Made by a program: the position numbers and the translations under genes. Below are positions 49 through 13,402 of a stretch of DNA of 64,000 nt, piece after piece. The stretch comes from a virus. The notes under the pieces are model-generated. The model had not been told where the DNA came from. It was given only the letters and a program-made list of their open reading frames with translations, and made no database searches. The stretch lies in the IMG/VR virus record IMGVR_UViG_3300013102_000030, positions 1 through 64,000 of that record. The stretch is one strand, 5' to 3'. The number at the start of each line of letters is the position of its first letter. Within the stretch, counting starts at the first letter, position 1.

Positions 49-91
49 GAAACTTTTGTAAGTTGCGGTGCCGCTCGGACTCTGATAGAGT
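49..91 (+). promoter_or_regulatory. Promoter with inverted box abutting -35
   Basis: GAAACTTTTGTAAG then TTGCGG-17-TAGAGT. Confidence 0.75.
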
Positions 92-124
92 TTGAGTATC
101 AACAGCGATTCCGTAGGAGGAACC

Positions 125-463
125 ATGGCAGTCACACGTTTGTGGGAAGTCGAGAAGAAGGACCGTCGCAAGTTTCAGGGAGCGTACCGACGCGGCTGGA
201 ACTACTCGGACAACACCGACATCCCGAACCATCAGGGACTGGACGGGAACCCGGACTCCGGTATCCTGTACTGGGGCTGGGAGGATGGCTATCTGGACCG
301 TGCCGCTGACCGTGAGTACGGGCACATGATGCAGGAGCACGACCACAACAACCCGGACGAATGCCAAGCCGTAGAAGATCGGCTGCATGCCGCTTGGCTG
401 GCTACCGTGGAGAAGACTCCCGTCGCTCGTCAGGAAGTCGTAGGCGAGTTCAAAGATAAGTAA
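125..463 (+). CDS. hypothetical early protein
   Basis: ORF 92..463; SD AGGAGG before ATG125. Confidence 0.8.
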   Translation: MAVTRLWEVEKKDRRKFQGAYRRGWNYSDNTDIPNHQGLDGNPDSGILYWGWEDGYLDRAADREYGHMMQEHDHNNPDECQAVEDRLHAAWLATVEKTPVARQEVVGEFKDK

Positions 464-512
464 AAGTTGTAAGGGCTGGCCGGTTGACGGCTGGCCCTTA
501 CTGCTATAGACT
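462..512 (+). promoter_or_regulatory. Cassette element (degenerate box, hairpin, promoter)
   Basis: TAAGGGCTGGCCG/CGGCTGGCCCTTA stem; TTGACG-17-TAGACT. Confidence 0.85.
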
Positions 513-541
513 TTGAATACCGAACCAACTAGGAGGAAATC

Positions 542-772
542 ATGTTCAAGAAAATCCTGACCACCACACACCACAACGGTGTGACCACCGAGGATGTTGT
601 GGAGACCGTTGGCCCTGATCATGTCGAAGCGGACATTGCCGCAGAGATTCGGAACCTGCGTCCGATGACGCGGACGTACGGAAGGATTGCTCACGTGGAG
701 AAGACCATGACCACGTTGGTCATCGTCTACACGTCCGGTACCGTGGAGATCTTCCGGTGGGTGGCTGAATAA
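542..772 (+). CDS. hypothetical early protein
   Basis: ORF with AGGAGG SD after promoter. Confidence 0.8.
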   Translation: MFKKILTTTHHNGVTTEDVVETVGPDHVEADIAAEIRNLRPMTRTYGRIAHVEKTMTTLVIVYTSGTVEIFRWVAE

Positions 773-993
773 TGTCAGCACTGAAGCGCATGGTGGCGCG
801 GCTCGATGGCCGGAACAAGCGCACGTCTGCCGGATTCGTTACCACTACAGCGGAACTGGCGAAGATCCTGCCGGAACTCTCCAAGCTGGTATCCGTGTCC
901 GTCATCGAGAAGGAGCGGTATCCGTATCCGGTTGCCAATGAGATCGACATCGAAATCAAATTCAGCTTGACACTGGAGCGGGACAAGCTGTAA
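772..993 (+). CDS. hypothetical protein
   Basis: TAATG stop/start coupling. Confidence 0.7.
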   Translation: MSALKRMVARLDGRNKRTSAGFVTTTAELAKILPELSKLVSVSVIEKERYPYPVANEIDIEIKFSLTLERDKL

Positions 994-996
994 GCT
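963..996 (+). promoter_or_regulatory. Hairpin promoter without box, inside 3' end of upstream gene
   Basis: CAGCTTG/CAAGCTG stem; TTGACA-18-TAAGCT. Confidence 0.7.
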
Positions 997-1030
997 GGTT
1001 CTACCAACAACAACCGTCCTAGGAGGACAA

Positions 1031-1366
1031 ATGCCGCAGACTCTGAATGACATCATCGATCTCTCCATCCAGCCGGAGCTTGACTTCAGCAAGATTGAGG
1101 CGTACGGTTGTCGTATGGCGGGATGCCAGACCGATGGCATCACCATCAACCGCGCAACGGAGTACGTTCTCCGGATCGGTGGTTACCAGCGGAGGGTTTA
1201 CAACTGGGAGCAGTCCGGTGGCAACTCCCGGATGTACGTCAAGACGGGTTGGGGAGAGCGTTCTTTCCTCCCGGAGGAAGCTGTTACGCTTCTGACCTAC
1301 GGCAAGCCGGAGTACGGTACGCTGAAACTCGTGGCACATTCCGTGCAGGTTGCGGATGCCGCTTAG
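1031..1366 (+). CDS. hypothetical early protein
   Basis: ORF; GTCCTAGGAGGAC SD. Confidence 0.8.
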   Translation: MPQTLNDIIDLSIQPELDFSKIEAYGCRMAGCQTDGITINRATEYVLRIGGYQRRVYNWEQSGGNSRMYVKTGWGERSFLPEEAVTLLTYGKPEYGTLKLVAHSVQVADAA

Positions 1367-1378
1367 CTCTGATACTGT
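1350..1378 (+). promoter_or_regulatory. Promoter
   Basis: TTGCGG-17-TACTGT, similar to 63-91. Confidence 0.6.
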
Positions 1379-1405
1379 TTGACTACCAACAACACAGGAG
1401 GAACC

Positions 1406-1693
1406 ATGAGCCAGTCGCACGAAACGATCGAACTGAACATCGAGACCATCCTCACTCTGGACGACCAGAACGAGCCGCAGGCCATCACCGTTTCCGGTAC
1501 CGGGAACATCCCGCGTTCGGCAGTCCGTGCCATTGCGGAGGAAGCGCTGGAGTCCTTCACCGGAAAGGTCTTGCACGAGTACCGTGTGCAGATGTCTCCC
1601 GTTGAGGAATCGGAAGAGGGAACCGTCTTCGAGATCTACAAGAAGCTGACTTTCGGAACCCGTCCACGGGCACCAATGAGCGCTGCGGAGTAG
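1406..1693 (+). CDS. hypothetical early protein
   Basis: ORF 1379..1693; AGGAGG before ATG1406. Confidence 0.8.
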   Translation: MSQSHETIELNIETILTLDDQNEPQAITVSGTGNIPRSAVRAIAEEALESFTGKVLHEYRVQMSPVEESEEGTVFEIYKKLTFGTRPRAPMSAAE

Positions 1694-1701
1694 CTGCCGC
1701 A

Positions 1702-1758
1702 GTTACAAAACTTTCAAAAGGGATCGGGCTTGCGGCTCGGTCCCTTTTGCTGTAGTCT
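1702..1758 (+). promoter_or_regulatory. Cassette element
   Basis: GTTACAAAACTTTC; 15-bp stem; TTGCGG-17-TAGTCT. Confidence 0.9.
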
Positions 1759-1788
1759 TTGATTACCAACAACGGCTAGGAGGCCACC

Positions 1789-2073
1789 GTGAGCGACAAC
1801 TACAACATCAAGATCCAGCGCAAAGACGGCTTTACCCTTCAGGCAGTCCAGAACGTGAGCATCAACACAGCGTGGCGTATCCTGCCGTGGCTCATTGAGG
1901 ATCTGGTTATGCGCGGTGAGGGTAGCGATCCGTCTGCAACCTTGGAGCACATTGCATGCCGTGATGCGGTACGCGATCACTTTGTCCAGCATCCGCACAT
2001 CTGGTTCAACCAGTTGGCAGATACCGGATACGTCTCCCTGTTTGACCTGAGCATCACCATGGACCACAGCTAG
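1789..2073 (+). CDS. hypothetical early protein
   Basis: GTG start with AGGAGG. Confidence 0.8.
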   Translation: MSDNYNIKIQRKDGFTLQAVQNVSINTAWRILPWLIEDLVMRGEGSDPSATLEHIACRDAVRDHFVQHPHIWFNQLADTGYVSLFDLSITMDHS

Positions 2074-2129
2074 TTACAAAACTTTCCTACGGGAGGGAAG
2101 TTGCATCTACGGCTTCCCTCCTGTAGTCT
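2073..2129 (+). promoter_or_regulatory. Cassette element
   Basis: box fused to TAG stop; hairpin; TTGCAT-17-TAGTCT. Confidence 0.9.
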
Positions 2130-2164
2130 TTGATAACCAACCCAAACCGTCCTAGGAGGACAGC

Positions 2165-2668
2165 ATGACCACCTTTTCAGATGACAGCAGCGTTGACGAG
2201 CAGATCGAAAACGTGTACGCACAGGCTACGGATCTCTTCGATCCGGGCACGGTTCTGGACATCGACAACGACGAGTACGCTCGCGGTGTGGTGGAGTTGG
2301 TGACTCGGCTCCTTGGCATGGATGACAAGGAAGATGTTGCGGACATCATCACGGAAAAGCTCAAGCGTCCTGTACCGGAAGACAAGGACATCACGTGGAC
2401 GGATCTTGAACTCCGTCCTAACGGAGAGTTCTACATCGAGCGGCTGAAGGCTTCCACGTCGGAATACTGGCCGTTCCGCGTGGAGCGGTACGATGACATG
2501 GGAGCATGGCGCTTGATCGATGGCACATCGGATGTGCCGATGGCGATCATCCGTCCCGGAACTCAGCACGAATCGTGGCGCGTTACCGTCAACGGCTACG
2601 CGCAGGTCAAGCCGTTTACCAACCTCAAGGCTGCTGTGATCTACGCAGTCGGAGAGTTCAACGGCTGA
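2165..2668 (+). CDS. hypothetical early protein
   Basis: ORF with SD. Confidence 0.8.
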   Translation: MTTFSDDSSVDEQIENVYAQATDLFDPGTVLDIDNDEYARGVVELVTRLLGMDDKEDVADIITEKLKRPVPEDKDITWTDLELRPNGEFYIERLKASTSEYWPFRVERYDDMGAWRLIDGTSDVPMAIIRPGTQHESWRVTVNGYAQVKPFTNLKAAVIYAVGEFNG

Positions 2669-2724
2669 TTACAAAACTTTCTTACAGGGCAGGAGTTGCA
2701 ACAGCGGCTCCTGTCCTGTAGTCT
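2669..2724 (+). promoter_or_regulatory. Cassette element
   Basis: box after TGA; 17-bp stem; TTGCAA-17-TAGTCT. Confidence 0.9.
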
Positions 2725-2755
2725 TTGAGTACCAACCAAGCCGTAGGAGGCAACA

Positions 2756-3226
2756 GTGAAAGACTTTGACATCCGCCGCAAGTTCGTAGGAACCACCGCA
2801 GACGGTGAGCGCGTTTACTTGGATGCTCGCCTTATCTCCTTCACGGGAAGCGAGACCCAGACGGTGGACCACGTGAAGATCACGGAAGGTCAGCGGTTCA
2901 GCATCTCCGGACAGTGTGGACCGGAAGCCACCGGATCGTTTGGGCAGATCGTGGACGATGTCCGCAGGATCACCAAACCGGCAGAGGGTTTGAAGCTGTC
3001 GGATCTCGCGGATCTCGTGGAGATCTGGGAGACCTACCACCTGAACGACATGAAAGCTCTCTGTGAGCATCAGACAGTCAAATGGGAGTACAGCCGTGGT
3101 TACAAGAGCATGGATCTCGCTGGGATCGGTCCTTGCCCTGTCACTGGTTACCGTCCCGGCTCGCTGTGGCTTTACAAGCCGGTTCCGGATTCGGTACTCG
3201 CTCGCGTGCTGGAGATCCTGAGCTAG
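2756..3226 (+). CDS. hypothetical early protein (HLNDM..C.HQ / CP..GY..G motifs, possibly metal-binding)
   Basis: GTG start with SD; Cys/His motifs. Confidence 0.8.
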   Translation: MKDFDIRRKFVGTTADGERVYLDARLISFTGSETQTVDHVKITEGQRFSISGQCGPEATGSFGQIVDDVRRITKPAEGLKLSDLADLVEIWETYHLNDMKALCEHQTVKWEYSRGYKSMDLAGIGPCPVTGYRPGSLWLYKPVPDSVLARVLEILS

Positions 3227-3280
3227 TTACTAAAGTTTCTTAGGAGCGGAGTTGCAATAGCGGCTCCGCTCCTATAGACT
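3226..3280 (+). promoter_or_regulatory. Cassette element
   Basis: GTTACTAAAGTTTC; hairpin; TTGCAA-17-TAGACT. Confidence 0.9.
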
Positions 3281-3308
3281 TTGAGAACCAACCGAACAGG
3301 AGGCCACA

Positions 3309-3524
3309 ATGGCTAAGTTTGTAACCACGATTCCCAACACTCCCTTTCAGCAGCGGATGGCACGCGGCCACCGAATCCGCAACGGGCACGAGTTGGCAGC
3401 GTTGCATGTCAGCGACGATGGGATTCTGTGGCACAAGGTTCGCACGTGCTGTGGTGAGCAGATCCCGGAAACCGTAGAGACGTGGGAGCAGCACACTCCT
3501 ACTCCGGATCGTCCGCAGTTGTAA
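3309..3524 (+). CDS. hypothetical early protein
   Basis: ORF with SD. Confidence 0.75.
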   Translation: MAKFVTTIPNTPFQQRMARGHRIRNGHELAALHVSDDGILWHKVRTCCGEQIPETVETWEQHTPTPDRPQL

Positions 3525-3572
3525 AAGTTTCTTAGGGTAGGAGTTGCAACCGTGACTCCTACCCTGTAAGCT
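3518..3572 (+). promoter_or_regulatory. Cassette element
   Basis: GTTGTAAAAGTTTC containing the stop; hairpin; TTGCAA-17-TAAGCT. Confidence 0.9.
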
Positions 3573-3602
3573 GGTTCTACCAACAAAGCCTAGGAGGGCA
3601 AG

Positions 3603-4073
3603 ATGTCACGGTTTGAAACCGAAGAGGGACGGATCGAAGCAGCTAAGGAAGCTGGACGGAACGTCGCACGGCATGAGATCAAGGATGGCTACGATGAGCC
3701 GCGCAACTGGGATCGGGACGGAGTCCACAACGCGGGAGCGTTTAGCCACCTGTCAGCGGTTGGATTCTCCCGGCTGGGATCTCGGATGTACTCCCAAACC
3801 TTCATCGATGCATACAAGCATGAGTTTGAAAGCCTCTCCAAGGATGTCCCGGAGATCTCCGGAGAGGACGCGCTCGCAACGCTGGAAGGCATGCTAGCGG
3901 CAGAGATCCGCAACGCTGACCAGCTTTCTTACAAGCTCGCAAAAGAGCGAGAGGAATACAAGAAAGATCCGTCGGCGGATACAAAAGCCATCCGCGACAT
4001 GACAGAGATCCGCTACAACAAGGCGGTTCTGAAGAAGCAGGCGCTGAATTTCGCCATTCAGCAGATCCGCTAG
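3603..4073 (+). CDS. hypothetical early protein, helical C-terminus
   Basis: ORF with SD. Confidence 0.8.
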   Translation: MSRFETEEGRIEAAKEAGRNVARHEIKDGYDEPRNWDRDGVHNAGAFSHLSAVGFSRLGSRMYSQTFIDAYKHEFESLSKDVPEISGEDALATLEGMLAAEIRNADQLSYKLAKEREEYKKDPSADTKAIRDMTEIRYNKAVLKKQALNFAIQQIR

Positions 4074-4075
4074 CA

Positions 4076-4132
4076 GTTACAAAACTTTCTTTTAGGAGCG
4101 GAGTTGCATCCGTGACTCCGCTCCTATAGTCT
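4076..4132 (+). promoter_or_regulatory. Cassette element
   Basis: box; hairpin; TTGCAT-17-TAGTCT. Confidence 0.9.
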
Positions 4133-4177
4133 TTACTTATCGGAGCAACCGGCTCCCCTTAGTCCTAGGAGGACAAA

Positions 4178-4501
4178 ATGTCTGAACTCGCTCACCTTCT
4201 CGCTGGTTCCGTTTCGGATGCCAAGGTCACTGAAGCACCAGCCCAGCGGAGCGCAACAGGCTACGGTAGGAAGCTTCCTACTCCCTACATGGTTCGGATC
4301 TCCAACCGCTGGCACCGCGTTTACGTGATGAACTACGGCAACGCTGGTTCTTCCTACGTCGTGATCAACGGCAAAGAGCATTTCCTCTCTCCCGGAGCGG
4401 AGTTGATCGTTGAGACGGTTCGGGACGGCGGAACCGCTCAGGATGCCATCCAGCAGCTTCAGGCATGGCCGGACATCTTCCGTATGGAGGAAGGTCTCTA
4501 A
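4178..4501 (+). CDS. hypothetical early protein (GYG.KLPT.YMV...W.RVY motif)
   Basis: ORF with SD. Confidence 0.8.
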   Translation: MSELAHLLAGSVSDAKVTEAPAQRSATGYGRKLPTPYMVRISNRWHRVYVMNYGNAGSSYVVINGKEHFLSPGAELIVETVRDGGTAQDAIQQLQAWPDIFRMEEGL

Positions 4502-4503
4502 GA

Positions 4504-4559
4504 CTTACAAAAGTTTCCTACCGTAGGGAGTTGCATCCCGTAGCTCCCTACGGTACGCT
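4504..4559 (+). promoter_or_regulatory. Cassette element
   Basis: CTTACAAAAGTTTC; 16-bp stem; TTGCAT-17-TACGCT. Confidence 0.9.
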
Positions 4560-4596
4560 TGATTCATCAGCACAACGAAAGACTTTAGGAGTCGAA

Positions 4597-4839
4597 ATGA
4601 ACAAGAAGACCGCTAGCATCGTCCTTGCAGAGGTTCAGAACTTCGTGGGAGTTACGGAAGGATATTCCGCTCCGCAACTCATGGACAACGACCATGAGGG
4701 ACTTTCGGAAGGTTCATGGTCCATCTGCTTTGAAGGTGGCGGAAACGTGGAGGATTGGGCGCTTCACTTCCGGACAAAGGTTCCCGGAGTTTTCGTTGAA
4801 CCGATCAGTAGCTGCATTCTTGGAGTGCATGACGCGTAG
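4597..4839 (+). CDS. hypothetical early protein
   Basis: within ORF 4465..4839; AGGAG before ATG4597. Confidence 0.8.
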   Translation: MNKKTASIVLAEVQNFVGVTEGYSAPQLMDNDHEGLSEGSWSICFEGGGNVEDWALHFRTKVPGVFVEPISSCILGVHDA

Positions 4840-4848
4840 TCGATGTTT

Positions 4849-4890
4849 TCTGGTTCTGGGATTGACAACCGATCCCAGAGCCGGGATGCT
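4849..4890 (+). promoter_or_regulatory. Hairpin promoter, box degenerate
   Basis: CTGGTTCTGGGAT/ATCCCAGAGCCGG stem; TTGACA-17-GATGCT. Confidence 0.75.
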
Positions 4891-4924
4891 TTTACTACCA
4901 CAAAGCTAGTCCTAGGAGGACACA

Positions 4925-5269
4925 ATGACTGTAGTTCACACTCGCAAGGTTCACGCTGTGAAGCAGGTTCCTTACTCCAACCGGTACGATGTGGAGATGG
5001 TTGGAGGTCCGCTGAACTTCCCGCAGGTTGTTTCTGATGTGGAGGTTTTCAGCAAGTACGTAGGCGGTGGCCGGAGCGTGTGCACAATCCGAGTTCCCAT
5101 GAAAAAGCTTCAGGGAGTCCCGGACTTTCCGTCTCTGACCTCCCGGCAAATGGACGGGATCGCAAAGCGGATCGATGGCCGGTACCGTCTCCAGTACTCC
5201 CAGAGTGGCACGGATTCGGTAGGCCAGCCGGTTTACCTGCGTTCCTACGCATTCAACGCAAACGACTAG
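4925..5269 (+). CDS. hypothetical early protein
   Basis: ORF with SD. Confidence 0.8.
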   Translation: MTVVHTRKVHAVKQVPYSNRYDVEMVGGPLNFPQVVSDVEVFSKYVGGGRSVCTIRVPMKKLQGVPDFPSLTSRQMDGIAKRIDGRYRLQYSQSGTDSVGQPVYLRSYAFNAND

Positions 5270-5280
5270 GAGATCCAGCC

Positions 5281-5550
5281 ATGAGAGCAGAACTCAAGAC
5301 GCGCACGGACACGGTAAAGACTCCCGTAGGGAACGTGCAAGTCAGGCGGTACAGCGCACGCGGTAGCCTCCGTGGAGTCTTCCTAGAGGGCAGGGAGCTA
5401 GGCGAGATCCAAGGGCAAGGGAGGTTTGTCCTAGTCAAGCCGCACAGACGCTACGGGCAGCAGTGGAGGGCAGCTAGCTACGCTGAAGGCATCCGGCAGC
5501 TAGTCAACATTGACGCTCTGGACCATGGGAAAGACAAGGTCTTTCCGTAG
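5281..5550 (+). CDS. hypothetical basic protein
   Basis: within ORF 5080..5550; AGGAG before ATG5281. Confidence 0.75.
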   Translation: MRAELKTRTDTVKTPVGNVQVRRYSARGSLRGVFLEGRELGEIQGQGRFVLVKPHRRYGQQWRAASYAEGIRQLVNIDALDHGKDKVFP

Positions 5551-5605
5551 TTACAAAACTTTCTTAGGAGTAGGGAGTTGCAAAAGCTCCCTACTCTGAT
5601 AGTCT
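5550..5605 (+). promoter_or_regulatory. Cassette element
   Basis: box fused to TAG; hairpin; TTGCAA-16-TAGTCT. Confidence 0.88.
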
Positions 5606-5653
5606 TTACTTATCGCGGTTCGACCGGAGCCGCTGAAGTCCTAGGAGGACACA

Positions 5654-6034
5654 ATGACTGATCACGGATTCATCTCCCTTGGCAAGTTCTCATCCGCACG
5701 GGATTCGATCCTTCACTGGTTGGCAGGTGTGGAGTGGTGCAATGCATCCTCCGGACACGTTGAGGCTCCTACGGGATGGTTTGCCAAGATCTCTTTTCTT
5801 CCGGCAGAGATCCACATCCCAAACACTGAAATCACTTCCGTTCTGGAAGAATGGTTTCAGGATAATCCGGAGGTTACGGACTCTCCGGAACTCCGGAAGG
5901 AACTGGAGGGTTTTTTCATCGTCCGGGAGAACGAACAGGGTTTCGTGTCCGTGGAAGTGTTCCCTACGGAGGCAGCTATGAATGTTGCCTACGGAGCGTT
6001 GGAGGATGCTTTCTCTGAATGGGACGGCGAATAG
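5654..6034 (+). CDS. hypothetical acidic early protein
   Basis: ORF with SD. Confidence 0.8.
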   Translation: MTDHGFISLGKFSSARDSILHWLAGVEWCNASSGHVEAPTGWFAKISFLPAEIHIPNTEITSVLEEWFQDNPEVTDSPELRKELEGFFIVRENEQGFVSVEVFPTEAAMNVAYGALEDAFSEWDGE

Positions 6035-6090
6035 TTACAAAACTTTCTTACCGGCTGGGAATTGCAAGAGCGGTTCCCAGCCTGTAAGGT
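6034..6090 (+). promoter_or_regulatory. Cassette element
   Basis: box fused to TAG; hairpin; TTGCAA-17-TAAGGT. Confidence 0.9.
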
Positions 6091-6126
6091 AGGAACTACC
6101 AACAACCGATGTTCCTAGGAGGAACG

Positions 6127-6477
6127 ATGTACCAGCCGCGTACGCAGTCCAGCAAGTTTCGCAATGAGGATTGCCCTGCTGATGTTCTAGCCATCTATGA
6201 CAACGGCGGAAAGTCCTTTGATCGGTTCACAGTCTTCTATAAGCCTGTTGAGCCTCTGAAGGATCTTAGGGGATGGATTGGCTATCGTGGGATGTCAGAG
6301 CGTCCCAGCAGTCCGCAGGGTTTCGGCATCTATGATGAGATGGAAGCCTACAAGGTAGCACAGTACCGGAACAGGGTTTACCGGGAATCCTTCCAATGGT
6401 CAAAGCTTCCGGAGGAAGTGAAGAGCGTAGTTCGCGCCGATTGTGCGGACATCGTGGAAGCTCGCAAGCAGAAGTAA
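6127..6477 (+). CDS. hypothetical early protein (YDNGG.S.DR.TV...PQGFG motif)
   Basis: ORF 6109..6477; SD before ATG6127. Confidence 0.8.
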   Translation: MYQPRTQSSKFRNEDCPADVLAIYDNGGKSFDRFTVFYKPVEPLKDLRGWIGYRGMSERPSSPQGFGIYDEMEAYKVAQYRNRVYRESFQWSKLPEEVKSVVRADCADIVEARKQK

Positions 6478-6484
6478 GCATTTC

Positions 6485-6512
6485 GGAAGGGGAGCAAACC
6501 GGCTCCCCTTCC
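6485..6512 (+). other. Intergenic hairpin without promoter
   Basis: GGAAGGGGAGC/GCTCCCCTTCC. Confidence 0.6.
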
Positions 6513-6539
6513 TCCCTAACAAGTCCTGAGGAGGACAAA

Positions 6540-6749
6540 ATGGATTACTGGATCAATAAGCGCGGTTTCTCTCTGGTTGGCACTACGGAAGCCGGAGTCT
6601 TTCTAGCTCGGAAGGAACGGGAACGGAAGTTCCTGCTAGTCCGTGAAGACTGGTTCACGGGAGAGCTTCGGCAGTTTACTCCCATAGTCCGAACGGAAGC
6701 GGAAGCGCTTTCCTACCTGTCCAACTCTTCTACCCTTGCAACCGCTTAG
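6540..6749 (+). CDS. hypothetical protein
   Basis: within ORF 6396..6749; GAGGAGG before ATG6540. Confidence 0.75.
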   Translation: MDYWINKRGFSLVGTTEAGVFLARKERERKFLLVREDWFTGELRQFTPIVRTEAEALSYLSNSSTLATA

Positions 6750-6758: not shown

Positions 6759-7052
6759 GTGAAGTCTGTAATAACCTCTCTGGAGCCGAACCGCGAAGAC
6801 GCTACGTTGGGTCTCACTCCCTACGCTGTGACCATCAAAGGATCTCCGGAACCACGCGTCAAGATCGTGGAATCGCGGGACATCACAACGGGCAAGGCTA
6901 CGGTGCGAATCATAGCCATGGCAGCGGCTGGGATGCCTGTCCTAGCGCTTCCCACGCTGGACCAGATCGCTAGGCGGATCTTGCCCGGAGCACGCGTTAC
7001 AGCGCGGCTGCATGGCTCCGCAGCGTTTACTAGGGTTTACGCAGCGGACTAG
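6759..7052 (+). CDS. hypothetical protein
   Basis: GTG start with AGGAG. Confidence 0.75.
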   Translation: MKSVITSLEPNREDATLGLTPYAVTIKGSPEPRVKIVESRDITTGKATVRIIAMAAAGMPVLALPTLDQIARRILPGARVTARLHGSAAFTRVYAAD

Positions 7053-7062
7053 ATCCACAGGA

Positions 7063-7119
7063 CTTACAAAAGTTTCATAACTTCAGGAGTTGCGCCTAAC
7101 GGTGTGACTCCTGTAGTCT
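7063..7119 (+). promoter_or_regulatory. Cassette element
   Basis: box; hairpin; TTGCGC-18-TAGTCT. Confidence 0.88.
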
Positions 7120-7163
7120 TTCTATATCGGTTCAAGGGGAACCGCAGAGCTTAGGAGTTACAA

Positions 7164-7475
7164 ATGTTCGGACACGTTCAGACCACGTTCAATCGCTCGG
7201 AAGTTGAAACGCTGTGCGAGAAGCTGACAGCGGCAGCGGTAGCGCTGGAAATGCTGGCAGAGGATGACAAGATCCTGTTTCATCCCGGATCTACCACCAA
7301 CGGACATGCTCCGGCTTTGAGCGTCTTCAACGCTAACGCGGAAGGTCACCGGAAGGTTGTACGCGTTGATTGGCTCCCTGATTTCAAGATCGGAGACAGC
7401 CGGAACACTGTTGGCCGGATCTTGTCCCCTCTCGTCGTTGGCATGACTGCGGCAGCGGACTTCCTGAATCCGTAG
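7164..7475 (+). CDS. hypothetical early protein
   Basis: ORF with SD. Confidence 0.8.
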   Translation: MFGHVQTTFNRSEVETLCEKLTAAAVALEMLAEDDKILFHPGSTTNGHAPALSVFNANAEGHRKVVRVDWLPDFKIGDSRNTVGRILSPLVVGMTAAADFLNP

Positions 7476-7531
7476 TTACAAAACTTTCCCAGTGTGGCGG
7501 ATTAGGAAATAGTCCGCCACACTGGTAACGT
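7475..7531 (+). promoter_or_regulatory. Cassette element
   Basis: box fused to TAG; 16-bp stem; TAGGAA-17-TAACGT. Confidence 0.85.
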
Positions 7532-7569
7532 AGTACTTACCAAACCGCTTGAAGTTCCTAGGAGGAACA

Positions 7570-7947
7570 ATGAAACTGCATTCCGACAAACTGACCACCG
7601 CTGAAATCCGCGCATGCTTGGAGCGTGCCATTGCTAAGGGCAGGGTTTCGCGTCTGGTGGACTTCTCCGAATTGGCAGAGCGTGGGAGCCGTACGCGTGC
7701 TAACGCGTGGGAGATCCGGCTTGAATGGCTGGGAACGAAAGAAAAGGGAGATGGCCGGAAGTGGACTAACTCCGGTACGCGTGGCAGCGGAGAGGCTGCA
7801 AGCGGTGGCTACGCTGCATTCTGGGATGAGTGGGGCTGGTTCATCTGGGAACTGTACGCGGTAGACTCCGAATTGGTATTCGGACACTACAAAACCGAAA
7901 CGGAGTTTCACGAGATGACTCGTTTCAAGTTCGCGGTGGCTGAGTAG
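7570..7947 (+). CDS. hypothetical early protein
   Basis: ORF 7549..7947; SD before ATG7570. Confidence 0.8.
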   Translation: MKLHSDKLTTAEIRACLERAIAKGRVSRLVDFSELAERGSRTRANAWEIRLEWLGTKEKGDGRKWTNSGTRGSGEAASGGYAAFWDEWGWFIWELYAVDSELVFGHYKTETEFHEMTRFKFAVAE

Positions 7948-8003
7948 TTACAAAACTTTGTTACGGGAGCGGAGTTGCTTAGGTGGCTCCGCTCCTGTAG
8001 TCT
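7947..8003 (+). promoter_or_regulatory. Cassette element
   Basis: box fused to TAG; hairpin; TTGCTT-17-TAGTCT. Confidence 0.9.
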
Positions 8004-8050
8004 TTCTATATCGGTTCAGAGGGAACCGAAAAGCTGACTTAGGAGTCACA

Positions 8051-8458
8051 ATGTCTGAAGGTAAGCAGGTCACAGCGGAAAACCTCAACTCTGTAATGGA
8101 GTTTGATCACGTGCTGCACATTGCTAACGGGATCGCTGAGGATGTCGCGGAATCCTTCTACTTTGAGGTTACCCAGTTCAAACTGGAAGATGGCCGCTGG
8201 GAAACCGAATACATCCTTCCTGAAGGCTGGCAGGTCATGCGTGGCTACACAGGGCAGCATGGCTACAATGGTCCGGACATGCATAACTCTGAGTTCATCG
8301 GCGGTGGCATGGCTAGGGACATTCTGGAGGCTCCCGGCCTGTATGTTGCCCTTGCCATCTCCGCTAGCTGTGGAGGCTTGGAAGATGGCTGTGCAGAAGA
8401 TGACTGCACCTGTGAGGGTGAGGGTTGGGTAGTAGCTTACAAGCTTGACGGCGAGTAG
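8051..8458 (+). CDS. hypothetical early protein (GYTGQ.GY.G..MH.SEFIGG motif)
   Basis: ORF 7958..8458; AGGAG before ATG8051. Confidence 0.8.
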   Translation: MSEGKQVTAENLNSVMEFDHVLHIANGIAEDVAESFYFEVTQFKLEDGRWETEYILPEGWQVMRGYTGQHGYNGPDMHNSEFIGGGMARDILEAPGLYVALAISASCGGLEDGCAEDDCTCEGEGWVVAYKLDGE

Positions 8459-8516
8459 TTACAAAAGTTTCTTAGGAAGGTCCGGAGTTGTAATGACTCC
8501 GGATCTCCTATAGTCT
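8458..8516 (+). promoter_or_regulatory. Cassette element
   Basis: box fused to TAG; hairpin; TTGTAA-17-TAGTCT. Confidence 0.9.
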
Positions 8517-8553
8517 TTACTTATCGGAACAATCCGCTAACTTAGGAGTCAAG

Positions 8554-8886
8554 ATGACTTACGAAATTACCACGTTTGAGCAGTACAACCCTTTCTCCCG
8601 TGTGGCTGATCGTAGCGTGCTGGTGATCGCTGATGAGCACGTGCGTAACTTCCTCTCTCACCTTCCGGAGGAAGCGCAGGAGATCATCCTAGAGGAAGCG
8701 GAGTGCAACGGTGGCACGCGTTTTGTGGGCAAGGATGGCAAGTACAACCACATCAAAAAGCGGATCTCATACGCGGATCTCCGGACTCCTACGGCAGCGG
8801 AGGAAGACGCAGAGTTTGAGGCTCGCCGGATGGCTGTAGAAGACCGGGAAGACCGGGAAGCGTTGCGCGGACGCTGCGGCGACTAA
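8554..8886 (+). CDS. hypothetical early protein
   Basis: ORF with SD. Confidence 0.8.
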   Translation: MTYEITTFEQYNPFSRVADRSVLVIADEHVRNFLSHLPEEAQEIILEEAECNGGTRFVGKDGKYNHIKKRISYADLRTPTAAEEDAEFEARRMAVEDREDREALRGRCGD

Positions 8887-8941
8887 TTACAAAACTTTGT
8901 TACGGCTGGGAGTTGCGCGGATGGCTCCCAGCCTGTAAGTT
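8887..8941 (+). promoter_or_regulatory. Cassette element
   Basis: box after TAA; hairpin; TTGCGC-17-TAAGTT. Confidence 0.9.
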
Positions 8942-8988
8942 TGACTTATCGGTTCAAGGGGAACCGATGAAAGACTTTAGGAGTCAAG

Positions 8989-9468
8989 ATGAGCAAGCTG
9001 GAAATCGGATCGCTGGTCAACGTTGAACTGCTGGCAGCAGGTTGGCACGGAGCGGAAGTTACCGGAGTCTCTGAGGATGGCAAGCTGTACAGCGTGAAGC
9101 TGCTGGAAGCTTCCGATGGCTACGAAGTAGGGCAGGAGCTTGGAGGCTTCCATGTAGATCCTACGGCTGATTACTTTGGAGATGCTGAGGCTCCCAACAT
9201 CAAAGCTGCTGAGGTTTACATCATGCGAGCGGATCGCACTCCGGAGATGTCATGGTGGCAGGCAGGGGAGAGCATCGGAGTTAGCCACTCTGCTAAGTCT
9301 CTTCCGGCCGCTGTAGGCTCCCTGCTGACCTGCTGGGAGGTAGAAGGACGTAGGAGCCGTGGAGAGCACACGGAGACTCCAGAGGCTGCGGCAGCGCTGC
9401 TGACAGGTGGCAGGTACTGGAGCGCTGACAAGCTGGTGACCTACTGGTTCCGGTTCACTGGTCAGTAA
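8989..9468 (+). CDS. hypothetical early protein, possible SH3/Tudor-like N-terminus
   Basis: LEIGSLVNV...W.GAEVTGV....YSVKL pattern. Confidence 0.75.
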   Translation: MSKLEIGSLVNVELLAAGWHGAEVTGVSEDGKLYSVKLLEASDGYEVGQELGGFHVDPTADYFGDAEAPNIKAAEVYIMRADRTPEMSWWQAGESIGVSHSAKSLPAAVGSLLTCWEVEGRRSRGEHTETPEAAAALLTGGRYWSADKLVTYWFRFTGQ

Positions 9469-9525
9469 CTTACAAAAATTTCATAGGGAGTGGGAGTTGC
9501 AATGTGGCTCCCACTCCTATAGTCT
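9469..9525 (+). promoter_or_regulatory. Cassette element
   Basis: CTTACAAAAATTTC; hairpin; TTGCAA-17-TAGTCT. Confidence 0.9.
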
Positions 9526-9571
9526 TTCTATATCGGATCAAGAGATCCGGAAAACAACTTAGGAGATTCAA

Positions 9572-9844
9572 ATGTCTGAAGCAGCAAACCGTGGCGGCGT
9601 TACCCTTACCGGCGCAGCGATTGACTTCTTTTTCATCCGCCGGATCGTCACCGCGTACGAGATGGAAGATCGCGGGATGCGTATGAATCGCGGACCTTCT
9701 GCCCTTCAGCAGACTAAGATGCTGGGATTGGTTCCGGAAAACTCCCGGAGCAAGAAAGCCGGATTGCGTGCGGTGGTTGCCAAGGTTCAGGAGATGATGC
9801 CGAGCTACGAACCTAACGATAACGTGAAGCGGCTCATGGCATAG
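9572..9844 (+). CDS. hypothetical early protein
   Basis: ORF with SD. Confidence 0.8.
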   Translation: MSEAANRGGVTLTGAAIDFFFIRRIVTAYEMEDRGMRMNRGPSALQQTKMLGLVPENSRSKKAGLRAVVAKVQEMMPSYEPNDNVKRLMA

Positions 9845-9849
9845 AGTCA

Positions 9850-9888
9850 GCAGGGAGAGGGACCGGGAAACCGGTCCTTTTCTTTTGC
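9850..9888 (+). terminator. Intrinsic terminator
   Basis: GGACCGG-GAAA-CCGGTCC then T-tract. Confidence 0.85.
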
Positions 9889-9894
9889 CCGTGA

Positions 9895-9942
9895 CTTACA
9901 AAACTTTCTTAGGTTGCGCGGTGGCAGGATCTCCTATAGTCT
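9895..9942 (+). promoter_or_regulatory. Box + promoter without hairpin
   Basis: CTTACAAAACTTTC; TTGCGC-17-TAGTCT. Confidence 0.8.
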
Positions 9943-9986
9943 TTAGGTAGTTAGTTGATAATCCAATAGCGAGAAAAGAGCAGGTC

Positions 9987-10358
9987 ATGGCAACATCCAA
10001 GGAAACCCTGAAGATTGCAGTCAAGATCATGAAGCGGATTCGGCGCTCGTGGGAGATGTACGAAGACGAATGTGCGGAGTACGCAAAGCAAGGCTACCGG
10101 CCTCACTACTGTTTCCACGGTGTGGACCAGTGGACGGACTACGACAACATCTGTGGATGGTGTGAGGAAGTAGGCAACGGCTGGGATTATGTGCAAGCGC
10201 TGAAGCAAGCGCTGGCAGAGGCTGAGGCAGCAGTTGAAGCCAAGCAGAAGCGCGTGGATCTCCTGATCACGGTACAGGTCCAGAAGATGCCTGTAGAGGA
10301 TTGGGGAAAGCTGCTTGAGTGGGCGCATGAGCCACTAGCCAAGTATGACGAATTGTAA
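9987..10358 (+). CDS. hypothetical protein with CxHG/CxxC possible Zn site
   Basis: ORF; YCFHG...ICGWCE. Confidence 0.8.
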   Translation: MATSKETLKIAVKIMKRIRRSWEMYEDECAEYAKQGYRPHYCFHGVDQWTDYDNICGWCEEVGNGWDYVQALKQALAEAEAAVEAKQKRVDLLITVQVQKMPVEDWGKLLEWAHEPLAKYDEL

Positions 10359-10363
10359 GAGAT

Positions 10364-10400
10364 AGGGAGTCAGCCTAACGGTTGGCTCCCTTTTCTTTTT
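10364..10400 (+). terminator. Terminator ending the + array
   Basis: AGGGAGTCAGCC-TAAC-GGTTGGCTCCCT + T-tract. Confidence 0.85.
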
Positions 10401-10550
10401 GCCCTGCGGCTGGTGGTTGGCTGCGGATCTCTGTTGCCTGCCCTGCGCGGCTGTGTGAGCCTCTGAGAGCCTGTTAGGTGGCTGGTGGTGTGGTTGTGCC
10501 TGCGCGTGATTCTGAGCGCTTAGAGAGGCTTCTAGAGGTCCTGCGCTGGG

Positions 10551-10590
10551 ACAAAAGAAATCCCGCTAGCCTGTTGGCTGCGGGATCTCT
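10551..10590 (-). terminator. Terminator ending the - array
   Basis: reverse complement ATCCCGCAGCC..GGCTAGCGGGAT-TTCTTTT. Confidence 0.75.
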
Positions 10591-10606
10591 GGGAGAGGCT
10601 AGAAGG

Positions 10607-10792
10607 CTACTGTGGCAGCGGAAAATCATTGATGCTGCCAACTACCACTAGAGCGGCTGCTAGGAGCGCTGTGGAGGCTGGAGAGGCTTTGAACCGCTGC
10701 CCTGCGCGTCGTGCGCGGATCTCAATACGATCTAGCGCGGTTTCGCGTGCTGCGTGGTCACGTGCTGCGCTGCGTTCTGCTGCTGTCATCAT
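10607..10792 (-). CDS. small protein with hydrophobic C-terminus
   Basis: AGGAG SD directly after a box at 10806-10819. Confidence 0.65.
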   Translation of the reverse strand: MMTAAERSAARDHAARETALDRIEIRARRAGQRFKASPASTALLAAALVVVGSINDFPLPQ

Positions 10793-10868
10793 TGCGGGAT
10801 CTCCTGAAAGTTTTGTAAGTGAGAGGAAGTGAAAGACTCCGGAGCCTTTCGACTCCGGAGCCTTCAGT

Positions 10869-11081
10869 CTAGCGGATGAAACGGACTTCAGACTCTAGGA
10901 CATTGAACGTGTCTCCGGAGGGAATCGCGGTGACTTCCAGAGTGTAGCGTCCCTGCCACGGCTGGCCGTACTCATCAACGCGAAGCTCTCCGGCTGCGGA
11001 CTCCGGAAGTCCCGTGAGAGGGAAGCTAGCGGCGTGGATCTGGACAACGTCACCGATTTTGTAGCTGCGTGCCTTGTTCAT
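10869..11081 (-). CDS. hypothetical SH3-like small protein
   Basis: ORF 10869..11120; AGGAGG before ATG11081. Confidence 0.75.
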   Translation of the reverse strand: MNKARSYKIGDVVQIHAASFPLTGLPESAAGELRVDEYGQPWQGRYTLEVTAIPSGDTFNVLESEVRFIR

Positions 11082-11110
11082 TTTTCCTCCTGAGTGGTTG
11101 GTACCCTCTG

Positions 11111-11166
11111 AGCTTAGCAAAGATCCGGACCTGTTGCCAAGTCCGGACCTTTGTAAGTTTTGTAAC
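11111..11166 (-). promoter_or_regulatory. Cassette element (minus strand)
   Basis: GTTACAAAACTTAC fused to TAG; hairpin; TTGGCA-18-TAAGCT. Confidence 0.85.
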
Positions 11167-11621
11167 TAGATGCTGCTGGTGCTGATGCCGTATGAGGTTT
11201 TGAAAGCGCGAACCGCGAAGTCAGCATTAGGCGTGCGCTGGTTGGTTCCGGCTGCGTAGGTGATCATGTCCCAGATCTGACCTTCACGATGGGCAGGGAC
11301 CACGTTGTAAACGAATCCGGAGTACTTCCGGGAGAGTTCCGTTTCGATCTCTTGCAGTTCTTCCTGCTGGGCTGCGTAGGCTGCGAGATCGGCAGCGGTG
11401 CGCGTTGCGTAGTCGATGGCATCCCGGACGTTGTTACCGTCCCGGATGATGGATTCGAAGATCTCATCAGCGTTAGCTGAGTCGATCAGGGAGAGAGTGG
11501 AGCGAAGCGCAGTTTCGATCTGCCCGTAAACTCCTGCCTGCGGAGCAGTGACTTCCATGGCGTTTGCTGAGAGGCGAGCGGCGTCCAGAGCTTCAGCGAG
11601 TGCGATCAGCTTGTCATCCAT
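11166..11621 (-). CDS. hypothetical early protein
   Basis: ORF with TAGGAG SD. Confidence 0.8.
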   Translation of the reverse strand: MDDKLIALAEALDAARLSANAMEVTAPQAGVYGQIETALRSTLSLIDSANADEIFESIIRDGNNVRDAIDYATRTAADLAAYAAQQEELQEIETELSRKYSGFVYNVVPAHREGQIWDMITYAAGTNQRTPNADFAVRAFKTSYGISTSSI

Positions 11622-11660
11622 TGTGACTCCTAGGTTGGTGCGATTGGTTGGTACAAAGAA

Positions 11661-11717
11661 AGACTATCGGTTCCGGGACCTGTTGGCAAGTCCCGGAACC
11701 TAGGGAACTTTTGTAAC
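11661..11717 (-). promoter_or_regulatory. Cassette element (minus strand)
   Basis: GTTACAAAAGTTC; hairpin; TTGCCA-17-TAGTCT. Confidence 0.9.
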
Positions 11718-11926
11718 TAGAAGATGTGGTTCAGGAGATCCGCAAATTCTTCGTCCGTTGCGTGAATCCATTCCGGCTCCGCTGCCATGCATCCGCTGCA
11801 ATAGTCCGTAGGCTGCGGCCCACGCGTTACAGTCTCGCCTGAAGTGTAAACGTCATCCTGTCCGGAGTGTTCACAGAGGGAATCGTTGCTGTCAGTCTTC
11901 CAGTGGCGTGCAACTCGCTGTGCCAT
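11717..11926 (-). CDS. small Cys/His protein, possible Zn-binding
   Basis: H...SLC...YCSGC; GAGGA SD. Confidence 0.75.
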   Translation of the reverse strand: MAQRVARHWKTDSNDSLCEHSGQDDVYTSGETVTRGPQPTDYCSGCMAAEPEWIHATDEEFADLLNHIF

Positions 11927-11965
11927 GTCTTCCTCTCGCGGTTGATACTTTCAACCTCTGAGACG

Positions 11966-12021
11966 ATTCTAGGGCAGGATCTCCTGATGTGGCAAATCCT
12001 GCCCTAGAAAAGTTTTGTAAC
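11966..12021 (-). promoter_or_regulatory. Cassette element (minus strand)
   Basis: GTTACAAAACTTTT; 16-bp stem; TTGCCA-18-TAGAAT. Confidence 0.88.
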
Positions 12022-12755
12022 TAGTTCGCTGCGGCTGCTGGTTCCGTTGTGACCACCGTTTCCGGCTTGGCTACGTTTGGCGCTGGTTCCGGCTGCTGCT
12101 TGCCAATCTGGCAGAACGTGCCAACTCCTGCCCACGCGTCTCCCAGTTCAAGGCTTGAGCAGATCTCTGCTTGAGTCTTGACGAAAACGTACTGATACGT
12201 GGGATTGATCACAGACCTAACCGCACGGTAGCCATCAGCTACGGGACCGACAGGAGCTAACGTGACGTAGGTATTGGCGAACGTCCCGCGATCCGTGAGA
12301 CCTGAGAGCGCATAGGCTTCCTCAAGTCCGCAAATACGGTTTCCCATCAGCGCACAATCCCAACGCGGATCATCCTCCGGAGTGATCTCCTGCTGTGGTT
12401 CCGTGGTGGCAGGAGCCTCTACGGTGGCCGGTACGGTGGCAGGATCTTCTACCGTGGCAGGAGCCTCAACGGTGGGAACTTCCGTTGCAACTGGAGCAGT
12501 GTATGACAGTTCCGGCTGCGGTTCCGATACGGTTTCGGAGACGGGCTGTGTGGTCTCCTGCGGCTGCGGTTCCGTGGCTGCGGTAGTCGATACGGTGGGA
12601 GCGTCCCACGCTGGCAGGATGGCATCCTGAGAGGCTGAGACAGAGGTCTCTGCTACGGGCAGGATCTCCGCTTCCTGTGGCTGCTGTGCTGTGGCTGCGG
12701 TTGTAGTGGTCAGGGCAAGGGCAAGGATTGCGAGAGGTGCAAGGATGCGTTTCAT
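12021..12755 (-). CDS. exported protein: signal peptide, P/T/E-rich linker, EDDP.WDC..MGN..CG motif
   Basis: MKRILAPLAILALAL...ATA; AAGGAG SD. Confidence 0.8.
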   Translation of the reverse strand: MKRILAPLAILALALTTTTAATAQQPQEAEILPVAETSVSASQDAILPAWDAPTVSTTAATEPQPQETTQPVSETVSEPQPELSYTAPVATEVPTVEAPATVEDPATVPATVEAPATTEPQQEITPEDDPRWDCALMGNRICGLEEAYALSGLTDRGTFANTYVTLAPVGPVADGYRAVRSVINPTYQYVFVKTQAEICSSLELGDAWAGVGTFCQIGKQQPEPAPNVAKPETVVTTEPAAAAN

Positions 12756-12783
12756 TGTGTCTCCTTAGATTGGTGAACCTTAC

Positions 12784-12820
12784 CTGAACAGGGTACCACG
12801 GGATGCGGTACCCTGTCCAG
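12784..12820 (-). other. Intergenic hairpin
   Basis: CTGGACAGGGTACCGC/GTGGTACCCTGTTCAG. Confidence 0.65.
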
Positions 12821-12836
12821 CTTGGATAGTGTTTGG

Positions 12837-13190
12837 CTAAGCGTGCTTGACGATGTCCCAGCGCATGACGTGGTAAGTGTTGGGGAAGTCCAGTGATGCA
12901 AGGGCAAATTCTCCCCTGATGGTTGCCACACTGGAAAGCTGGGATGCGTCGATGGTCCTGCTGTAGCTGAGCATAAGCTCTGTGTCTGATGTGTTCTCAA
13001 CGTGGTTGTCATCGACAGTCTGCCAAACATCCTGCATCAGCACGTCATCCTGTGGTGCGGCCTGCTGCTGTGCCTGCTGTACCTGCTGCGCTGCTGGTGC
13101 CTGTGCTGCCTCTACATGAGCGTTAGTGGTGGCTGGTGCACCAAAGACAATGGCAAGGCTGGCAATGACTGAGATGAGAAAGCTAAGCAT
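12837..13190 (-). CDS. exported protein with signal peptide
   Basis: ORF 12837..13256; GGGAG before ATG13190; MLSFLISVIASLAIVFG. Confidence 0.75.
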   Translation of the reverse strand: MLSFLISVIASLAIVFGAPATTNAHVEAAQAPAAQQVQQAQQQAAPQDDVLMQDVWQTVDDNHVENTSDTELMLSYSRTIDASQLSSVATIRGEFALASLDFPNTYHVMRWDIVKHA

Positions 13191-13227
13191 GATGACTCCC
13201 TGTTGTTTGGGTGGTTCGTTACACATC

Positions 13228-13256
13228 ACATTACACACATAGGACATGAGACACAA
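13228..13256 (-). promoter_or_regulatory. Promoter starting the minus array
   Basis: TTGTGT-17-TAATGT; box at 13309-13321. Confidence 0.6.
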
Positions 13257-13359
13257 GTCAAAGTCTTTGATAGTTCGAATGTGTTTCGTTTTGGTTTGGA
13301 ATGTGAAAGAAACTTTTGTAATCGAACATCAGCGCACATGGCACGTCACATTGCGTAAT

Positions 13360-13402
13360 GAAAGTTTTGTAAGTTGCGGCAGCGGCATGCGGCCTGTAGA
13401 AT
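13360..13402 (+). promoter_or_regulatory. Promoter with inverted box abutting -35
   Basis: GAAAGTTTTGTAAG TTGCGG-17-TAGAAT, same layout as 49-91. Confidence 0.75.

Follow-up and report, generated by a model that had tools for sequence, protein, structure and literature searches.

A repeated composite unit with terminator and promoter features delimits gene cassettes in a large actinobacteriophage

The window analyzed here, the first 64,000 nucleotides of IMG/VR virus record IMGVR_UViG_3300013102_000030, opens with ~13 kb in which ~31-32 genes are arranged in two convergent arrays and a composite repeat of ~100 bp recurs between them. We consider it likely that this probably early region is organized by a repeated terminator/promoter unit resembling the promoter-early stem-loops (PeSLs) of T4-type phages, and that the units mediate recombination of the gene cassettes. 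The record (174,136 bp; CheckV, 100%; soil) is probably that of a lytic-type actinobacteriophage, with the array as its hyperplastic, early gene region. Its nearest cultured kin are the Arthrobacter globiformis phages Atuin, Racecar, Mimi and Talia1610 (~194 kb each), to which the capsid/portal region is ~75-77% identical; the array itself had no match among GenBank phages by megablast, and a protein-level search of viral contigs for relatives gave none. The identical architecture occurs in four further lineages, namely Racecar/Mimi/Talia1610, Atuin, an IMG/VR phage (G001) and a soil contig (L143). We refer to the present phage as G000, to the Racecar locus as L001 and to another locus used in the unit comparisons as L118.

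The repeat is most easily recognized by its 12-nt box, TTACAAAASTTT, of which 22 copies with at most one mismatch occur in the 64-kb window, all at 50-13372, compared with 0.24 ± 0.49 (maximum 2) expected from shuffled sequence. The whole genome holds 19 exact copies; the first 13.4 kb accounts for 18, and the remaining one lies at 170203. Aligned copies define a unit of ~100 bp that runs from the stop codon and box through 2 to 5 nt, a long hairpin, TAnnnT and a leader to a TAGGAGG and the next start codon. When the entire 174-kb genome was searched with a covariance model based on 5 in-register units, 18 units scored E<0.005, every one of them within 1700-12023, and outside this range no hit was better than E=0.2 (at 170200); the figure of 18 complete copies given in a preliminary description of this DNA was therefore exact. 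All 18 carry a Shine–Dalgarno (SD) sequence of the TAGGAGG type and a start codon, and partial or rearranged units contribute ~8 more joints. The same description had listed boxes fused to stop codons, and these were found as given (TAG at 2071, 3224, 5548, 6032, 7473, 7945 and 8456 and, on the minus strand, at 11166, 11717 and 12021; TGA at 2666; TAA at 8884), all 12 closing SD-led open reading frames (ORFs). Its estimate of about 30 single-gene cassettes held for the number of genes, only ~20 of which are single-gene units between complete or partial repeats, the remainder falling into four short multi-gene runs.

Downstream of the -10, the leaders fall into two classes, one being TTGAnnACCAAC and the other TTnCTTATCGG with a small second hairpin after it, as in CGGTTCaaggGGAACCG; an ACCAAC leader also remains in the partial units at 993-1030 and 1366-1405, from which box and hairpin are gone. 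The SD tends to lie within a 4-bp mini-hairpin (GTCC..GGAC, GACT..AGTC, TTCC..GGAA or GGCY..GGCC) with TAGG(A) in the loop, as at 2147-2163, 4160-4176 and 7146-7162 of the window and also in L118 and L001. At least three flanking pairs were present at 67% of 45 TAGGAG sites compared with 35% for permuted partners (maximum 56% in 1000 permutations), a signal that owes much to the recurrent 13-mer GTCCTAGGAGGAC. In Racecar (L001, 8852-9316), the GenBank start of gene 18 (8852) falls inside a box, and the promoter, leader and SD of the unit indicate a start near 8930.

The hairpins have stems of 11-19 bp, loops of ~4 nt and folding energies of -24 to -37 kcal/mol, with z scores of -4.5 to -7.6 relative to shuffles. 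They wrap the predicted promoter. Near the apex, the 5' arm holds the -35, which is TTGCA in G000 and TTGACA in relatives and whose TT forms wobble pairs with GG; the 17-bp spacer is made up by the 3' arm, with the -10 at the stem base. The hairpin and the spacing proposed initially, with -35 and -10 elements ~17 bp apart (17 bp in 14 of the 18 units, otherwise 16 or 18), hence stand, but the -35 lies inside the hairpin and not after it. Across four genomes, the sense RNA folded more stably than the antisense in 76 of 79 strong units (-29.0 vs -22.3 kcal/mol; Wilcoxon p = 1.5e-14), and the sense folds contained 213 G.U pairs compared with 26 for the antisense. From unit to unit, sequence identity in the basal arms is only ~31%. 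When 53 units were aligned by structure, 96.6% of cells paired (61.6% when shuffled, 30-48% with the partner slid) and all 18 pairs showed compensatory changes with a covariation score of 0.76 vs 0.18, with the caveat that this alignment was fitted to the covariance model. MAFFT with RNAalifold on the raw units yielded no consensus structure, as loop and stem lengths vary, and the covariance-model alignment was used instead.

A DNA cruciform or palindromic protein site was excluded for the long hairpin: with G.U pairs concentrated on the sense strand and arms that covary freely, it is not a sequence-specific palindrome. The RNA-level signal argues for selection acting on the transcript of the upstream gene, in which the hairpin may serve as a terminator, a 3' stabilizer or a processing stem. 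Nine G000 units pass a generic terminator rule; in general, the stem-loop overlaps the -35 and spacer instead of preceding the promoter. At L118 16051 and 16369 (both minus strand), the hairpin stands apart as a short terminator that precedes an intact -35/-10, and promoters without a hairpin stand at array heads (173524; minus-strand sites at 13321, Racecar 20272 and L118 18472). Because such separate or hairpin-less cases exist, hairpin and promoter appear to be independent functions that are usually superimposed.

The arrangement TTGnnn-16..18-TAnnnT is kept in 100 of 136 box contexts from the five lineages, with a 17-bp spacer dominant and the -10 taking the form of TAGTCT or another TAnnnT. 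From this position-specific conservation we infer a promoter of the host SigA type. A promoter for a phage RNA polymerase, suggested by the T7-type likeness of box, TA and G-rich start or by an N4-type hairpin, is unlikely: a search of the phage for the T7-type RNA polymerase family found no match, with uninformative controls, and the host-type -35/-10 persists where the hairpin is missing. Sigma-70 region 2 and region 4 families likewise had no match in the phage.

The box itself is 9/12 A/T in a genome of 54% GC, lies at -60 to -49 of the next promoter and is near-invariant in the five lineages while stems and leaders vary freely. It reads TTACAAAAcTTT in G000 and L143, ends in TTC in G001 and in TTG in Racecar, and has the form T(T/A)ACAAAAnTT in Atuin, where its own TAA serves as the stop; across the five lineages, 85 of 136 boxes touch a stop codon. 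Box and -35 are 13-16 nt apart in nested units and 6-7 nt apart in hairpin-less ones, inverted boxes adjoin -35 hexamers directly upstream (50-61, 124623, 163491), and boxes are present in the untranscribed divergent region heading each minus-strand array. On account of this spacing, the inverted copies and the copies at untranscribed heads, we read the box as most likely a DNA-level promoter-upstream element, which might act as an UP-like contact for the alpha subunit of RNA polymerase or as the site of a phage or host factor. The occurrence of some boxes without a promoter makes this reading less than secure. Its position against the preceding stop codon can be read as the product of compaction.

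Inverted boxes also lie between plus-strand genes of the right arm, outside the window (genome 147228-147239, 160066-160077, 163175-163186 and 163491-163502); at 160066 the first three bases of the inverted box are the TAA stop, and the next SD follows 10 nt on, leaving no space for a promoter. Several other roles for the box were discarded. Pairing of the base before the box with box position 9, as in a mini-hairpin AGTT-ACAA-AACT, was seen in 14 of 24 cases compared with ~11 expected; a Chi-like or packaging role disagrees with box orientation, which tracks transcription and not the genome end; and a trans-acting RNA or ribozyme targeting the box had no Rfam match in the array or right arm, while inverted copies adjoin promoters. 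The papers searched did not give the box sequence for any phage, nor did they describe repeats of these Arthrobacter phages.

These elements suggest how one unit might work. It would open with the 12-nt box, usually at the stop codon of the preceding gene; the hairpin in the sense RNA would end or stabilize the upstream message; the 5' arm and apex of that hairpin would supply the -35, and the 3' arm the spacer, of a host SigA-type promoter with TAnnnT at the foot; and a short leader with a strong SD, often in its mini-hairpin, would drive the next small gene. Since each unit thus carries a predicted promoter, an SD and an upstream RNA hairpin, every cassette would be transcriptionally self-contained, in agreement with the initial proposal of plug-in expression modules. 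The same ~100 bp recurs ~20-30 times, so homologous recombination between units, within one genome or between co-infecting relatives, could delete, insert, replace, reorder or flip cassettes and leave their neighbors undisturbed, the box being one of the two homology patches at which crossovers were observed.

Comparison of relatives revealed turnover of the cassettes, of which 25-45% are shared between lineages. Of the ~32 cassettes of G000, protein comparison finds ~9-10 in G001 or Atuin and 7 in Racecar; among 8 shared cassettes, 3-5 have changed place in the order (3/8 relative to G001). Cassettes that run A,BC,D,E,F in G000 run D,F,E,BC,A in Atuin; L143, which has the G000-type box, shows yet another order; and some shared cassettes lie in the array of the other strand, such as the gene at 9987-10358 (plus strand), whose Racecar homologue is at 18462-18833 (minus strand). 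The adjacent region at 16.6-29.3 kb, in contrast, is collinear with Racecar and Atuin for 12/12 genes. Among the closely related trio Racecar, Mimi and Talia1610 (94-97% identical), the sole cassette-sized difference is that Racecar carries one additional gene on a 482-bp insertion: the sequences match perfectly across the upstream gene, the box and AATA, diverge at exactly that point and match again from the SD of the next gene. At genes 31 and 38, two allele replacements in the trio (55-79% identical within flanks of ~95-100% identity) extend from the -10/leader/SD zone to the first (5') base of the box. PeSL crossovers fall in two like zones, an A/T-rich region and the stretch from the -10 to the SD/ATG (PMC2839356). 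Instead of one conserved cassette order with indels placed away from the repeats, the relatives thus showed differing orders, with one indel and two replacements breaking at the box edge and in the leader/SD.

Several points weigh against a unit that both expresses and exchanges cassettes. On the expression side, the promoter, the terminator and the early timing are all predicted; a generic scan found a U-rich tail on only about half of the hairpins; and a generic promoter scan with the E. coli consensus gave 6 hits compared with 5.9 expected, missing these promoters because their -10 is TAGTCT-like. Four or five boxes lack a promoter (10818 on the minus strand, 160066, 170203 on the plus strand, Racecar 18139 on the minus strand), and box and promoter are separated by anything between 0 and 37 nt, a looser spacing than expected of a classical UP element. 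On the exchange side, only three recombination events are available among close relatives, the unit of Mimi at the indel is not a simple hybrid of the two flanking Racecar units, and junctions at gene borders would be expected from selection alone in mosaic actinobacteriophages.

The limited number of events and the Mimi unit also speak for an alternative that we consider rather unlikely, in which the units are regulatory signals only, turnover occurs by rare illegitimate recombination and selection for genes and hairpins that remain intact, as is usually supposed for mosaic actinobacteriophages, and the repeats mark viable junctions without promoting exchange; selection for matched hairpin arms alone would confine junctions to the box and leader/SD sides. 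It has to accommodate, however, that three junctions lie within a few nucleotides of the edge of a perfectly conserved 12-nt box, that scrambling and flips are confined to the repeat-bearing array next to a repeat-free, collinear neighbor, and that the analogous PeSLs recombine experimentally (PMC2839356). Because events are few and the Mimi unit is not a simple hybrid, we regard it as likely, not as proven, that the repeats cause exchange beyond being permitted junctions. By analogy with what is proposed for PeSLs, exchange by homologous recombination without an integrase is plausible.

The second alternative concerns the box, which might be the operator of a phage DNA-binding protein that switches the whole array off or on after the early phase, in the manner of the stoperators of cluster A mycobacteriophages. 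Stoperators reportedly overlap or abut stop codons and are oriented with transcription (Brown et al. 1997). An asymmetric 12-nt box that is near-constant in five lineages amid variable surroundings would suit such a site, as would its presence at array heads and before terminator-only sites. Stoperators share with the box the overlapping or abutting of stops and the orientation along transcription (PMC9283540), and the binding sites of L5 gp71 (PMC9283540, PMC6550527) are likewise short, asymmetric, intergenic motifs in ~20-30 copies; here, by contrast, the motif occupies one region, is tied to promoters and hairpins, and has a few inverted copies. That inverted copies exist at all, that a candidate binding protein was not identified, that lysogeny functions were not seen in the regions read of these phages and that a passive promoter element fits the data equally well leave the operator reading unlikely.

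A broader version, held just as tentatively, makes the box the site of a specific protein, either an array-gating, stoperator-like phage regulator or RNA polymerase retargeted by the ADP-ribosyltransferase of the phage, in the way T4 Alt acts for early promoters of T4, and at the same time the preferred crossover point. An ADP-ribosyltransferase that modifies RNA polymerase is, as a partner of the box, a matter of speculation by analogy with T4 Alt. If this version were true, the phages would possess an integrase-free cassette system in which regulatory address label and recombination linker are the same stop-fused element.

Box and hairpin together might instead direct the processing or the stability of RNA: read-through early transcripts would be split into single-gene messages by an RNase E-type cut in the A/U-rich box or by RNase III in the stem of ~1.5 turns (compare T7 early mRNA), and protective hairpins would be left. 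The majority form of the box contains AA/CUU, which may resemble the preference of mycobacterial RNase E. The hairpin is clearly selected in the sense RNA, the box would be a single-stranded, A/U-rich stretch of fixed length between stop and stem, and stems of 15-19 bp are long for simple terminators. Nevertheless, boxes at untranscribed heads and inverted boxes next to -35s favor a DNA-level role, Rfam had no match, and some units have box and hairpin in swapped order, making this reading quite improbable. Least convincing, and in our view highly improbable, is a dedicated site-specific, integron-like system with the box as the site of a putative phage recombinase: boxes do bracket cassettes, including the first and often the last, and junctions do lie at the box edge, but the second junction of each event falls in the leader/SD and not at a box, some array ends have no box, no recombinase is linked to the array, and homologous recombination suffices.

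Among known systems, the preliminary description had named PeSLs as the analogue, and sequence-level and comparative features agree with that choice. PeSLs were described in the T4-type phages RB49/phi1, T4/PST and KVP40/nt-1 (Arbiol et al. 2010, PMC2839356; Comeau et al. 2014, PMC4122927), where the stem-loop stops upstream transcription (PMC2839356, PMC4122927). Shared with them are a predicted promoter of the sigma-70 type whose -35 and -10 are 17 bp apart, an A/T-rich region upstream of it, an SD and start, a hyperplastic, ORFan-rich location, and unit-bounded indels and replacements between close relatives; a stem-loop is present too, as a putative terminator in another position. The present units belong to an unrelated phage lineage with a high-GC Gram-positive host, whereas PeSLs belong to T4-like myoviruses; as the relatives are ~194-kb A. 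globiformis phages, we class the units as working like PeSLs and not as members of the T4 set. They also differ in that the stem-loop wraps the -35 and spacer instead of lying upstream of the promoter (a few units here keep the PeSL order), that the A/T-rich part is a sharp, stop-fused 12-nt box conserved across lineages, that stems are long (13-19 bp) and freely covarying in sequence, and that ~30 cassettes follow one another in two convergent arrays. PeSLs are characterized, in addition, by mini-circles that arise when flanking units recombine and by promoter and terminator activity in reporters; the present units are known from sequence.

Other comparisons are more distant. In SPO1, host-type promoters and terminators are numerous in the terminal block of small genes that makes up the host-takeover module, and the RNase III sites of the T7/T3 early region likewise place strong hairpins between small early genes. 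In neither does one composite unit with a conserved box recur, and T7 early genes share upstream promoters instead of having one each. Halovirus HF2 has intergenic repeats with A/T-rich motifs acting as promoters; these are archaeal promoters, and nested hairpins or cassette shuffling are not mentioned in the abstract (PMC8707807).

The array probably begins at genome position 173524 and spans the record start. An ORF of 193 amino acids (aa) begins at genome position 173603, behind a box and promoter at 173524, and continues without interruption over the record end into positions 1-48 of the plus strand, with a TAA stop at 46-48; as it crosses the junction, the record start appears arbitrary and the array head probably lies at 173.5 kb. 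The head promoter is conserved in L143, and homologues of the ORF were sought and not found. ORF continuity and L143 synteny are the two grounds on which the record appears circularly permuted. On the plus strand, the ORF is followed at 50-91 by an inverted box (50-61), a -35 TTGCGG (63-68), 17 bp and a -10 TAGAGT (86-91), and then, within 125-1693, by five SD-led cargo genes (125-463, 542-772, 772-993, 1031-1366 and 1406-1693) with partial units between them. The last two genes have homologues in G001, and the partial unit at 464-541 comprises a degenerate inverted box, a hairpin around TTGACG, a -10 TAGACT, a leader and an SD.

Complete units then alternate with cargo genes along the plus strand. 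The first (1703-1788) precedes a gene of 94 aa (1789-2073), a TAG-fused unit (2074-2164) a gene of 167 aa (2165-2668), a TGA-fused unit (2669-2755) a gene of 156 aa (2756-3226), and a TAG-fused unit with the box TTACTAAAGTTT (3227-3308) a gene of 71 aa (3309-3524). A unit with the degenerate box TTGTAAAAGTTT (3519-3602) leads to another gene of 156 aa (3603-4073), and the units at 4077-4177 and 4505-4596 lead to genes of 107 aa (4178-4501) and 80 aa (4597-4839), the latter with homologues in Racecar, G001 and L143. A boxless unit at 4840-4924 (hairpin around TTGACA, leader and SD) is followed by two genes within 4925-5550 (4925-5269 and 5281-5550), the SD of the second overlapping the stop of the first. 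The TAG-fused unit at 5551-5653 precedes a gene of 126 aa (5654-6034) that is common to Atuin, Racecar, G001 and L143 with differing array position, and a further TAG-fused unit (6035-6126) heads a run of three genes at 6127-7052 (6127-6477, 6540-6749 and 6759-7052) with a hairpin-only spacer at 6485-6513.

Farther along the same strand, the unit at 7064-7163 is followed by a gene of 103 aa (7164-7475), a TAG-fused unit with the weak -35 TTAGGA (7476-7569) by one of 125 aa (7570-7947), the TAG-fused units at 7948-8050 and 8459-8553 by genes of 135 aa (8051-8458) and 110 aa (8554-8886), a TAA-fused unit (8887-8988) by a gene of 159 aa (8989-9468), and the unit at 9470-9571 by a gene of 90 aa (9572-9844) whose product is 72% identical to Racecar gp38. 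A rearranged unit at 9855-9986, in which a canonical terminator hairpin with a T-tract precedes the box (9896-9907), 6 nt, a -35 TTGCGC, 17 bp and a -10 TAGTCT, leads to the last plus-strand gene (123 aa, 9987-10358), whose Racecar homologue lies in the opposite array. The two arrays close at canonical terminators, a predicted intrinsic terminator at 10364-10400 (plus strand) and one read from the sequence at ~10556-10600 (minus strand).

On the minus strand, a gene of 61 aa (10607-10792) is followed in ascending coordinates by a rearranged unit (10793-10868) in which a hairpin, a box (10807-10818) and an SD directly after it occur without a promoter, and by a gene of 70 aa (10869-11081). TAG-fused complete units at 11082-11165, 11622-11716 and 11927-12020 alternate with genes of 151 aa (11166-11621) and 69 aa (11717-11926) and adjoin a pair of genes at 12021-13190 (12021-12755, 244 aa; 12837-13190, start uncertain), both with homologues in relatives. 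The head of this array, at 13200-13372, has boxes at 13361-13372 and 13310-13321, no hairpin, a TTGACT and the extended -10-like TGTGTAATGT.

The cargo genes are mutually unrelated, as had been noted initially, with no paralogue pairs and a mean identity of 9%. Pfam matched none of the 32 cargo proteins, and 11 had PHROG matches, all to families of unknown function. Mycobacteriophages of ~75 kb, Porky and Lilac among them, carry a right-end gene that matches the stretch 6169-6375, within the gene at 6127-6477, with ~67% identity at the nucleotide level, which suggests that the array draws its cargo from a wider actinobacteriophage gene pool.

Elsewhere in the genome, 30 tRNA genes covering most amino acids are clustered at ~84,000-104,700 (outside the window; loci L120 and L121). 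Within the window, 19920-20444 and 23435-26032 encode homologues (45-77% identity, in a strictly collinear block) of Racecar and Atuin genes annotated as ADP-ribosyltransferase, phosphoribosyl transferase and nicotinate ribosyltransferase. An ORF of the WhiB family (Pfam PF02467, E=2.3e-15) lies outside the window at genome 125011-125445; it has a C-terminal CxxC...CxxC extension and no AT-hook, and a promoter with an inverted box is found ~350 bp upstream, at 124623. It is the sole regulator family looked for and found, and showed no link to the box.

Under the PeSL principle, self-contained promoter/terminator cassettes also serve as recombination linkers; together, these observations would extend it beyond T4-like coliphages and vibriophages to large actinobacteriophages. 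The nested design, in which a putative terminator hairpin is built from the -35 and spacer of the next promoter, is unusually compact, and ~130 natural variants of one predicted promoter/terminator module are at hand for actinobacterial synthetic biology. The sharply conserved, stop-fused box is a testable element, and the cultured isolates Racecar, Atuin and Mimi, which propagate on a harmless laboratory host, would allow direct tests. Finally, the array delimits ~30 ORFans per phage as candidates for host-takeover or counter-defense functions.

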